DNA of 64,000 nt from a virus. The stretch lies in the IMG/VR virus record IMGVR_UViG_3300048592_000962, positions 64,001 through 128,000 of that record; one strand, written 5' to 3'. How positions within the stretch are numbered: position 1 is the stretch's first letter; the number at the start of each line of letters is the position of its first letter. Positions 14,716 through 17,717 of the stretch are shown piece by piece. Below the pieces are notes generated by a model, which saw only the letters and a list, made by a program, of their open reading frames with translations, was not told the DNA's origin and searched no databases. The translations under genes and the position numbers were made by a program.

Positions 14716-15089
14716 TGAGCTACCATCTTCCCGCTCAGCGTCGGCCGTTGGCCGATTCGGTTCACCCGGCCTACAGCCTTCAGCCGCTGCCGCCGAGCCC
14801 CACGACTCCGCTGGCGCAGGCACCTGCGCCAACGCAGGCGGCCGGCATGGACCCAATGACGAAGAAGATTCTGATCGGAATCGCTGTCGCAGTCGTCATC
14901 GCCGCCATCCTGTACTGGCTGGATCAGCAGAGCGGCGGCGCCTCGCGTCCGGTGAAGCGCAATCGGGGCACTGCGAAGAAGATGAGCACCGGGGAACTCG
15001 CCAAGAACCTCTACTCGCGCCTGGAGCGACGCGGCGGCGTTTCCGATACGACGATGCGCTCCCTGCGCGCTCTCAGCAAGAATGCGTGA
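14715..15089 (+). CDS. Single-pass membrane protein of the MSY group
   Basis: MSYHLP.., TM ILIGIAVAVVIAAILYWL, VKRNRG. Confidence 0.7.
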   Translation: MSYHLPAQRRPLADSVHPAYSLQPLPPSPTTPLAQAPAPTQAAGMDPMTKKILIGIAVAVVIAAILYWLDQQSGGASRPVKRNRGTAKKMSTGELAKNLYSRLERRGGVSDTTMRSLRALSKNA

Positions 15090-15511
15090 GCACCACTGTC
15101 CGAGACGAGTGGATTCGAGGTCTTTCTGACCCCGTCCTTCTGATTGTCGCCGGCACGCGGTTTGGCGTCTCAGAGTCCTATGTCTGGCGGCTCCTGGACA
15201 GGTATGCGGAGCGCGTTGCCCGCCCCAACCTGGTGATTCACGGAGCGTGCAGCGGCGTCGACAGCTTCGCGGACTCGTGGGCGAAGTCCCGTGGCATTCT
15301 CGTGGACCCGCACCCAGCGAAGTGGCAAAAGGTGCCGGGTGGTAAGATCGACAGGTCTCAGGGTCCACGAAGGAACTCGAAGATGGCCGCTCTCGGGACT
15401 CACTGCCTGGTGATTCGGTACAGTGATTCCAAGGGCTCGATCGACATGGAGAAGAAGGCTAGGGCTCGGGGGCTCGTGGTTCACACGGTGCTTTTGAAGG
15501 ACAGACCATGA
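15086..15511 (+). CDS. SLOG-family protein (DUF2493/YspA-like)
   Basis: LIVAGTR, VIHGACSGVDSFA..WA..RG, HPAKW, GPRRN..MA, SKGS.DM..KA. Confidence 0.8.
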   Translation: MSTTVRDEWIRGLSDPVLLIVAGTRFGVSESYVWRLLDRYAERVARPNLVIHGACSGVDSFADSWAKSRGILVDPHPAKWQKVPGGKIDRSQGPRRNSKMAALGTHCLVIRYSDSKGSIDMEKKARARGLVVHTVLLKDRP

Positions 15512-15765
15512 CCGATACCAAGCAAGCGAAGCAGCGGCTGGTTGATGCGATCGACGCCTTGATGGGCGAAGGGATGTCCGCGGAGGACGTGGTCGACGCC
15601 CTGGTCTCGGCCATTTCGAGGCGGCAGGCAACGGCGCAAGGGATCTCCGACCGACGGCGACGAGAAGAACTCCTGCTCTTTCAGTCGGATGCAATCACCG
15701 TCCTTCGCGACGCGATTCGGCGGCTCGGAATCGCGCGTCGTTCCGCAAGAAGCATCGCGGGATAG
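15508..15765 (+). CDS. Small helical hypothetical protein immediately upstream of the array
   Basis: ATGA overlap, AAGGA RBS. Confidence 0.7.
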   Translation: MTDTKQAKQRLVDAIDALMGEGMSAEDVVDALVSAISRRQATAQGISDRRRREELLLFQSDAITVLRDAIRRLGIARRSARSIAG

Positions 15766-15775
15766 CAGTTCGAGC

Positions 15776-15803
15776 TTGCACGTGGACAAAGTCCGTCTAT
15801 CGT
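15776..15803 (+). promoter_or_regulatory. Putative promoter of the repeat array
   Basis: TTGCAC-N16-TATCGT places the start near 15809, the AGCCG half of the first edge repeat; alternative -10 TATAAC at 15803-15808. Confidence 0.55.
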
Positions 15804-15804
15804 A

Positions 15805-16351
15805 TAACAGCCGAGCACACGCCGTCACCCGCTGACAAGCGCTAGCCAGATTGCAGGCCACAACCGAGACCGCGCCGCGAGCCGCCGCACGATCGACCAC
15901 CGTAATCACCTTGCGAGCCATACGAGGCCCGACACCCGGCGACTACGCGCGAACCGTCAAATACTCGTCACCCGGTGAGCCTTCGTGAGCCCTTCGACCC
16001 ACTTCACTCAGCGGACCATCGCGAGCCGTATCACGCACTTCACCCGAATGGTGTGCGCGAACCGCCCTCTCTGCGAAAACCGAACAGCTTCCGTGAGCCG
16101 TGACCTATCCCTTCTCGTCGTGTCCCCGCGAACCGTCAGTTCTACGTCATCCGAACAGTTTTCGTGAGCCGTATCCCGTGCCTCACCCATCTGCGTGTCG
16201 CGAGCCGTACCACGAACTTCTTCCAAATCGCGTCCGCGAGCCGTGCGAACACCGCCACCCAGCGACCAAACGCGAGCCGTGTCCTCCCCTGCACTCAGAT
16301 TGTCCGGGCGCGCCGCCACTGTCTCGTCACCCGTATGCTCTTCGCGCGCTT
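15805..16351 (+). ncRNA. TIGR-like tandem interspaced guide RNA array: 15 units, 36-bp period, dual repeat / dual spacer
   Basis: Edge repeats (consensus CGCGAGCCG) start at 15840, 15876, 15912, 15948, 15984, 16020, 16056, 16092, 16127, 16163, 16199, 16235, 16271, 16307, 16343. Loop repeats (consensus CGTCACCCG) lie midway. All intervening 9-mers are unique. Confidence 0.85.
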
Positions 16352-16385
16352 GCGTCTGTCGGACACTCCACGTAGTGTCTGACAC
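16350..16385 (+). promoter_or_regulatory. Promoter of the glycosyltransferase operon with two palindromic boxes
   Basis: TTGCGT-N17-TAGTGT; TGTCGGACA 16357-16365 and GTGTCTGACAC 16375-16385. Confidence 0.7.
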
Positions 16386-16391
16386 ACGCGC

Positions 16392-17717
16392 ATGGACGAC
16401 ATCAAGTACGACGACCGCAGCGACGACGAGCTGGCCTCGTTGGAGCAGAGCTTCAAGGCGCCTGGCGGCCCGCGAAACTACGTTGCTGCCCCGGCGCCGG
16501 GCTGGGACACCCGTGGGATCTGGCACTGCTTCGACTCCGGCTCCCGCAGCGGCTACACCGCCCACGCGGTCGGCTTGCACTGGGCGCTGAACGAGGAGCT
16601 GAAGATCCCAACGCAGCTCGTTCCGCATCGCAGCCTCGACGTCGACATCGAGCGTTTCCCTGCCGATCGCCAGGACATGCTCTTCGAGTGGCACAAGCAG
16701 GCGGTCGGCCTCCCCGAGCTACTCGTCGTCAGCTTCCCGCCCGAGACGGCGGAAGAGATGTCGGGGGTGCATGGGCGCATTGTCCCCTACTGCGCGTTCG
16801 AGGGCGACAAGGTCAGCTCGCTCTGCGCCCAGCTCTGCAACGGGCCTGCCTTCGCGGAGGTGTGGGTCGTATCTGACTTCGTTCGGAGAGCGCTCCTGAC
16901 TGGAGGCGTTGCACCGGAGCGCGTGCGCACGGTGACACCGCTGCTCTGTGGTGGCCCGTACCGCATGCCGGCATTCGATGCGATCGCGGAGGCGCGTCAG
17001 CGGCGCTCCGAACAGGGCGAGCCCTTCCGATTCGGCGTGATGGGTACCTGGCACAGCCGCAAGGGGTTTCACCAGCTGGTCCGGGCGTACTGGTCTCGCT
17101 TCTCTCGCTCGGACGAAGTGGAACTCGTCGTGCGCACGAGCAATTTCGGTCGCCGCCGCACGATCAAGGAGTTCGAGGGTTTTGTCACGGGACAGCTTCG
17201 AGAGATCGCCGAAGAGATGGGCCACAAGAACTGGCCCGATGCGCGCACCACCGCACGAATCAAGCTCCTCACGGGCACGGCGCTGACCGACGTCGAGGTT
17301 GTCGAGTGGATTTCATCGCTCGATTGCTACGTGAATCCTTCCTACGGTGAAGGGCTCGGCATCCCGCAGCACTGGGCGAAGGCCTGTGACGTTCCGATCG
17401 TGACGAGCGACTGGGGTGCCGTCGGTGATCTCTGTCTCTTCACCGGCGGAGACTTCGTGTTCGAATCGAAACTGATGCCGGTCGACCCGGAGATCCCAAA
17501 GGTCTCTCTGATGTTCGACCGTCGAACCCAGTGGGGCGGATACGAAACGGCTCAACTCGCGCACGCCATGAGCAACGCATTCGAGGCCGGACGACGCACC
17601 ACTCGACACTCGTCGGCCGACCTGGTCAGGCAGAAGTTCGGCGTCGCTGCGGCTTCAACGTCAGCGTACATCGCGTGCACCTCCGTCTCCGAGTCGCTTG
17701 CGAGGATTGCGGGATGA
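16392..17717 (+). CDS. Glycosyltransferase, GT-B fold (GT4-like)
   Basis: SGY..HA, VWVVSDF, G.W..RKG, DCYVNPSYGEGLGIP..AKAC.VPIVTS. Confidence 0.85.
   Translation: MDDIKYDDRSDDELASLEQSFKAPGGPRNYVAAPAPGWDTRGIWHCFDSGSRSGYTAHAVGLHWALNEELKIPTQLVPHRSLDVDIERFPADRQDMLFEWHKQAVGLPELLVVSFPPETAEEMSGVHGRIVPYCAFEGDKVSSLCAQLCNGPAFAEVWVVSDFVRRALLTGGVAPERVRTVTPLLCGGPYRMPAFDAIAEARQRRSEQGEPFRFGVMGTWHSRKGFHQLVRAYWSRFSRSDEVELVVRTSNFGRRRTIKEFEGFVTGQLREIAEEMGHKNWPDARTTARIKLLTGTALTDVEVVEWISSLDCYVNPSYGEGLGIPQHWAKACDVPIVTSDWGAVGDLCLFTGGDFVFESKLMPVDPEIPKVSLMFDRRTQWGGYETAQLAHAMSNAFEAGRRTTRHSSADLVRQKFGVAAASTSAYIACTSVSESLARIAG

Follow-up and report, generated by a model that had tools for sequence, protein, structure and literature searches.

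A TIGR array between an 85-aa ORF and a glycosyltransferase operon

The DNA analyzed here (the window, 64,000 nucleotides) comprises bases 64001-128000 of the IMG/VR virus record IMGVR_UViG_3300048592_000962, a complete genome of 159,872 bp with direct terminal repeats. A non-coding interval of the window (15766-16391), located between an 85-aa open reading frame (ORF) and a glycosyltransferase (GT) gene, holds a 15-unit array with the layout of the TIGR arrays that supply guides in TIGR-Tas systems. Positions refer to the window unless marked as genome positions. The locus contains the following features:

15086-15511, plus strand: YAcAr/SLOG-family gene (PF10686, E 2.7e-11), an accessory neighbor
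15508-15765, plus strand: 85-aa helical ORF, a conserved core gene
15776-15803, plus strand: promoter-like element of the array (TTGCAC, 16 nt, TATCGT), a pattern match ending just before the truncated first edge
15804-16342, plus strand: TIGR dual-repeat array, 15 units, with unit starts at 15804, 15840 and onwards to 16307
16199-16234, plus strand: conserved guide unit, spacer A TACCACGAA, spacer B AATCGCGTC
16343-16391, plus strand: degenerate terminal edge or unit, running into the promoter of the GT operon
16350-16378, plus strand: promoter of the GT operon (TTGCGT, 17 nt, TAGTGT)
16357-16384: 11-bp hairpin (fold -24.8 kcal/mol, z -3.1)
16392-17717 and 17714-18802, plus strand: two GT4-type glycosyltransferase genes (Pfam matches), downstream of the array

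TIGR arrays have been described as alternating edge and loop repeats of 8-12 nt separated by 9-nt spacers. Each spacer is preceded by a box C and followed by a box D, the first edge is truncated at its 5' end, and the transcript is processed to 36-nt tigRNAs (PMC12045711). Read on the plus strand, each unit of the window array consists of box D (CG), the linker CGAG, box C (CCR) and a 9-nt spacer A, followed by a loop half made of box D (C followed by G or T), the linker TCAC, box C (CCR) and a 9-nt spacer B. This box order fits the plus strand, on which the flanking genes also lie. The edge of the first unit is truncated at its 5' end to AGCCG; the first edge of the syntenic array in the related virus L080 is truncated as well. 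The spacing of units is exactly 36 bp in 12 of 13 cases and 35 bp in the remaining one. At a lag of 36, the self-identity of the array is 0.486, against a genome mean of 0.29 (standard deviation 0.036), and shuffled genomes never yielded motif chains as long as the array. The array fits exactly the rule implemented in TIGRFinder, in which box C (3 nt), spacer (9 nt) and box D (2 nt) make up a 14-nt interval that recurs at a distance of 4-5 nt (bioRxiv 10.64898/2026.09.09.750476). No Rfam family matches the array, and Tandem Repeats Finder misses it.

The information content of the window array is concentrated in its repeats (edge 12.4 bits, loop 9.1 bits, spacers 2.8 and 2.3 bits). Of the 14 edges, 13 have box C as CCR (CCG or CCA) and 12 have box D as CG; of the 14 loops, 11 have box C as CCR and 11 have box D as CG or CT. 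Box D is thus CG where UG is canonical. Both linkers are 4 nt long, and a C at loop position 18 is kept in all 14 units. The only element more variable here than in the array beside the tas gene (see below) is the edge linker, which is CGAG in 6 of 14 units versus 15 of 17. The claim that the loop repeat of this array is unusually degenerate, put forward in an earlier note based on the window, does not survive comparison: its 9.1 bits stand against 7.6 in the tas-adjacent array and 8.9 in the syntenic array of a relative. The companion claim, selection on geometry rather than sequence, is largely correct. Phase and boxes C and D are indeed kept while linkers drift, which is consistent with the published structures, where the loop linker makes no base-specific contacts (PMC12045711); the pattern is common to all three arrays of the virus.

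A single tas gene in a genome with three arrays

A search of the whole genome located a single tas gene and, by periodicity and motif scan, two further arrays, all outside the window:

Genome 24390-25340, minus strand: tas gene, 316 aa, the sole tas gene of the 159,872-bp genome
Genome ~23,834-24,376, minus strand: 17-unit array, with tas lying directly upstream
Genome ~19,350-19,601, minus strand: 7-unit array, 4.8 kb from tas

The tas gene is 54.5 kb from the window array. All three arrays have the same edge repeat CGCGAGCC, box C (CCR), box D (CG) and 36-nt phase. The window array is thus probably the third, tas-distal array of one TIGR-TasA system encoded by the virus. Near-duplicate units are found inside the window array, or array 1 (units at 16056 and 16127), as well as within array 3 and between arrays 2 and 3, which have a spacer B in common (AACTGCGAG). 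Three further chains, at genome 41.9, 75.7 and 147.9 kb, were considered as additional mini-arrays and rejected as looking like chance.

Apart from the term orphan, what the earlier note observed is sound. Its observation that the 64-kb window contains no Tas, Nop or IS110-like gene stands, six-frame searches with the Tas protein, a Tas profile of 60 sequences and the Pfam models PF01798 and PF02371 being empty there; likewise, six-frame searches of the whole genome with the Tas protein and profile revealed no second tas gene. PF01798 (Nop) and PF02371 (Transposase_20) are by themselves too insensitive as Tas detectors, since they miss even the true tas gene. The label of orphan must be withdrawn from the array, given the tas gene 54.5 kb away in the same complete virus, and of the explanations offered for the missing effector the one placing it far away in the same genome proved correct. 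As that note had foreseen for a tas gene found elsewhere on the contig, the genome-wide search turns the array into part of a split locus. There is no need to invoke a sponge or a Tas protein supplied by the host, since the virus encodes its own, and the proposal of an undescribed partner, with the 85-aa ORF as the nearest candidate, finds no support: that ORF is retained in a relative without the array (L084) and has an hhalign probability of 0.06% against the Tas profile. The other ORFs singled out for structural inspection (5570-6433 and, on the minus strand, 24558-25475 and 27714-29615) were rejected together with 15508-15765, none having a Pfam match or reaching 1% against the Tas profile in hhalign.

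The tas product is a nuclease-free TasA

In a phmmer search against the PDB, the 316-aa protein matched TasR (9mty, E 2.6e-10) and TasH (E 1.4e-7), and 120 homologues were collected, many of them tagged PF02371. An AlphaFold model built on a 60-sequence alignment reached a pLDDT of 90.6. The ten best Foldseek matches of this model in the PDB are all TasH or TasR cryo-electron microscopy structures (E 2e-9 to 2e-7, probability 1.0), followed in the ranking by IS621 bridge recombinases, and the target-normalized TM-score against Tas structures is up to 0.75. The coiled-coil first helix of the model begins at residue 15, leaving no space for an N-terminal domain and hence for a nuclease domain; Pfam, too, detects no nuclease family in the protein. 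Judging by the model, the protein is therefore a TasA, with the Nop fold and neither an HNH nor a RuvC nuclease domain.

Two further features distinguish this protein. Residues ~175-260 form a beta-rich insertion inside the Nop domain with two CxxCxGxG motifs of the DnaJ zinc-finger type, which are conserved in the family consensus. After the last helix comes a 27-residue tail in which Tyr298, invariant across 60 homologues, precedes His299. This tail may correspond to the Tyr/His processing loop reported for dual-repeat Tas proteins. A ParB-like gene (HTH_ParB, E 1.2e-10) lies downstream of the tas-adjacent array on the same strand, which matches the published association of tasA with tasParB. 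Among 16 relatives fetched from IMG/VR, 12 present a clear array of period 36 beside the tas homologue.

The array and its leader in related viruses

A search of IMG/VR with the array-adjacent GT protein returned no relatives. Relatives of this protein were instead reached via the protein database, many of them on large viral contigs, and four genomic contexts were fetched:

L082/L083: GT protein 69% identical; the slot holds a crisp array of 13-14 units
L080/L081: GT protein 75% identical; the slot holds a 7-unit array
L084: GT protein 67% identical; the slot holds two extra genes and no array
L085: GT protein 52% identical; the slot holds a tmRNA gene and no array

The array was thus found in the same slot in L080 and L082. 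Gene order in L082/L083 is homologue of the 85-aa ORF, promoter, array, GT promoter with hairpin, and GT. In L080/L081 the boxes are kept and the edge linker has become CTCG. The 7-unit array of L080 (L080:740-1075) is annotated as a 111-aa protein in a public metagenome assembly. The tmRNA gene of L085, a 157.6-kb relative, lies between the upstream genes and GT (L085:3559-3924) and encodes the tag ANESNYAHAAQAA.

Conservation extends to the leader, in which the blocks TTGC and GTCTAnnGTA are invariant in all three array-bearing lineages (the present virus, L080 and L082). These blocks can be read as parts of a putative promoter built like that of the GT operon (TTGCnn, 16-17 nt, TAnnGT). The element at the other end of the array, the GT promoter with its hairpin, is kept in all relatives with or without the array; it was assigned to the GT operon because it is conserved in the array-less L084 and L085. 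Promoter-like sites of one form (TTGnnn, 16-17 nt, TAnnGT) precede both the array and the GT operon, and another follows the operon (16350-16384, 21304-21331).

Between the present virus and L082, DNA identity is 64-73% in the flanking genes and 62% over the whole array regions, and the two syntenic arrays have a single unit in common. This unit (16199-16234) differs from its orthologue (L082:3738) at 2 of 18 spacer bases, where random pairs of units have a median of ~13 differences; no other unit is common to the two arrays. The pattern suggests that the array is maintained as such, that guides may turn over through copying of units followed by divergence, and that one guide is constrained.

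Proposed function and alternative explanations

Nuclease-free TasA acts as an RNA-guided repressor (bioRxiv 10.64898/2026.09.09.750476). As the third array of such a system, the window array would be transcribed on the plus strand from its own conserved promoter. TasA dimers, bound to the box C/D motifs of this transcript, would cut it down to 36-nt tigRNAs, probably by means of the 27-residue C-terminal Tyr/His tail of TasA itself, and binding of the resulting complex would block transcription or replication of a target. Targets would lie outside the virus, and the separate promoter would uncouple expression of these guides from that of the tas operon. In a more specific version, nuclease-free TasA would use the separately promoted guides of the distal array to silence host genes, and the conserved guide would mark a conserved host site; this is a speculative extension that we regard as improbable.

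Several observations weigh against the assignment of the window array to a working TIGR-TasA system. Box C is broken in three loops, one unit has a length of 35 nt and the edge linker is more variable than beside tas, so that some units may be dead. A strict sigma-70 scan called no promoter for the array, and the terminal hairpin has no U-run and overlaps the GT promoter. The array is missing in L084 and L085 and is therefore dispensable. The target search described below identified no natural target in the virus itself, in the related viral loci or in the genomes scanned. Some of these points would also be expected of a decaying relic, that is, an array that once lay beside tas or was copied from a proximal array and now drifts unused: the erosion of the CGAG edge linker relative to the tas-adjacent array, the 35-nt unit, the broken loop boxes and the loss in two relatives all speak for it. 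Against it stand the preservation of the 36-nt phase in 12 of 13 spacings and of the loop C in every unit, a promoter conserved in three lineages, the occupation of the same slot despite diverged flanking DNA and a guide that has stayed nearly the same. A relic is accordingly an unlikely explanation.

Still less credit can be given to two other possibilities. One is true orphan use, in which the array would serve the Tas protein of the host or of a co-infecting element, or soak up a foreign one. A virus with three arrays bearing the same edge repeat and no detectable tas gene (G007, see below) lends this idea some plausibility, although its record is linear and has an array 200 bp from the end, so that tas may have been cut off. 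The simplest partner for the window array is the virus's own TasA, and we consider orphan use very improbable. The other is that the array does not encode guide RNAs at all and is instead a series of phased DNA sites for a DNA-binding protein, such as the ParB-like proteins whose genes are present in the virus. Against it, experimentally processed tigRNAs have exactly this layout, with 3+9+2-nt intervals separated by 4 nt and two of them in each 36-nt unit, such arrays flank most of the tas homologues fetched, and variable 9-mers would be pointless in a protein-binding site. Phased protein-binding sites are likewise a distant prospect.

Search for targets of the guides

The target given in published work is a contiguous 18-bp sequence whose opposite strands pair with the two spacers; nuclease forms leave 8-nt 3' overhangs, and mismatches are little tolerated. 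Because the overhang is 3', the target is inferred to read spacer A followed by the reverse complement of spacer B. The other arrangement was covered as well, guides being searched both as A+rc(B) and as rc(A)+B 18-mers, where rc denotes the reverse complement. With up to two mismatches allowed, none of the 34 regular guides matched the virus's own genome outside the arrays; at 3-4 mismatches, the counts equaled those of shuffled pairings. In 708 kb of related viral loci, matches were only at chance level.

Against 185,579 genomes, the conserved guide gave 46 exact matches, with ~70 expected by chance according to a rough estimate. Ten of the 46 correspond to one site in nusA of Acidobacteriaceae/Terriglobia metagenome-assembled genomes (MAGs; loci L087, L093, L111, L113, L116, L117, L119, L125 and L123). 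The site consists of 18 bp coding for YHEDAV, in the geometry A plus reverse complement of B, and the viral variants differ at the wobble base of the Tyr codon: among the genomes with the site, seven match the relative's guide exactly and two lie a single mismatch away from that of the present virus. In the family, the site is carried by only 2 of 151 sampled members, exact matches of the conserved guide also form unrelated conserved-gene clusters of five and three genomes, and 800 kb of a nusA-matching genome contained no further guide matches above controls. The nusA coincidence may reflect chance plus the shared ancestry of the genomes. In a second case, an 8.2-Mb Acidobacteriota MAG (G164), the conserved guide, in the array 1 version of the present virus, matches exactly ~95 bp upstream of a DUF1592/PSD-family gene of 763 aa (L105:4902-4919). 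A further match, to a guide of array 2 and with one mismatch, lies within that gene at a distance of 1.15 kb (L105:6053-6070). In 1.94 Mb of this MAG there were no further guide matches above controls, and counts at two mismatches equaled those of controls. Both the nusA and the G164 matches are weak leads. A guide that is nearly the same amid diverged surroundings is nevertheless a good first candidate for target hunting.

Dispersed arrays in other viruses

Searching IMG/VR for pairs of edge repeats spaced in TIGR phase retrieved 52 loci, and several large viruses among them have multiple separate arrays:

G004 (IMGVR_UViG_3300021560_000014; loci L034, L042, L051, L059, L071-L074 and L078): 106 kb, at least 12 array sites from 2.8 to 97 kb, single tas at ~88 kb
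G006: 225 kb, complete, tas at ~95 kb with an array on each side, and a 20-unit array ~24 kb away
G007 (IMGVR_UViG_3300021404_000012; loci L041, L064 and L037): 62 kb, linear, estimated 98% complete, three arrays at ~0.2, 11.9 and 13.5 kb

Arrays of G004 reach up to ~85 kb from its tas gene. In G007, no tas gene was detected even at E 10, despite three arrays with the CGCGAGCC edge; this virus may be a genuine tas-less carrier of arrays or may have had its tas gene cut off at the end of the record. Dispersed arrays thus appear common in viruses sharing this edge repeat. In the searchable literature, arrays were sought only around tas loci, and the searchable TIGR-Tas papers never apply the term orphan to an array.

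Comparison with known systems

The closest known relatives of the system are the dual-repeat TIGR-TasA systems with tasParB (Faure et al. 2025, PMC12045711), for instance FpTIGR of Flavonifractor plautii. Both have the same 36-nt unit, box layout and truncated first edge. In both, TasA consists of the Nop domain without a nuclease, the operon includes a ParB-like gene and the host genome is viral. The system described here differs in the distance of 54.5 kb between array and tas (published surveys covered ~5 kb), in box D (CG instead of UG) and box C (CCG or CCA), in the DnaJ-like double CxxCxGxG zinc-finger insertion of TasA and in having three arrays at separate sites. With the TasR and TasH ribonucleoproteins (PDB 9mty, 9vzx, 9w04 and 21kl) the modeled protein shares the Nop-domain fold, without their RuvC or HNH domains.

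All published loci typically have tas beside the array, which is not the case for the window array. TIGR-Tas was described in 2025, and both large surveys searched for arrays only around tas genes; adjacency to tas is a habit of these surveys and not a mechanistic requirement. With its distal position and separate promoter, the element is a new example of a known system, and searches anchored on tas can miss arrays that lie tens of kilobases from it with promoters of their own.

A parallel exists among CRISPR systems, where orphan or distant arrays are served in trans by cas genes located elsewhere, share their repeat with the proximal array and have their own promoter. The family is nonetheless a different one, with a Nop-domain Tas protein, dual 9-nt spacers and no protospacer-adjacent motif. 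We know of no adaptation machinery for TIGR systems, and the single unit common to the syntenic arrays, together with near-duplicates within and between arrays, bears on how guides are gained and lost.

Neighboring genes

The neighbors of the array (a SLOG-family gene, an 85-aa helical ORF and a GT4 operon) are as previously described. The SLOG gene is present only in the present virus and L082, and is missing from the array-bearing L080. Homologues of the 85-aa ORF, for which a Pfam search gave no significant match, occur in L080 and L082 and also in the array-less L084. Neither gene has a paralogue near the other two arrays, and both are ordinary neighbors rather than partners of the array. 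The GT gene pair is kept in all relatives. Elsewhere in the window, a gene on the minus strand (25472-27481) encodes a 669-aa helicase of the UvrD/REP type (PF00580, E 5e-50).

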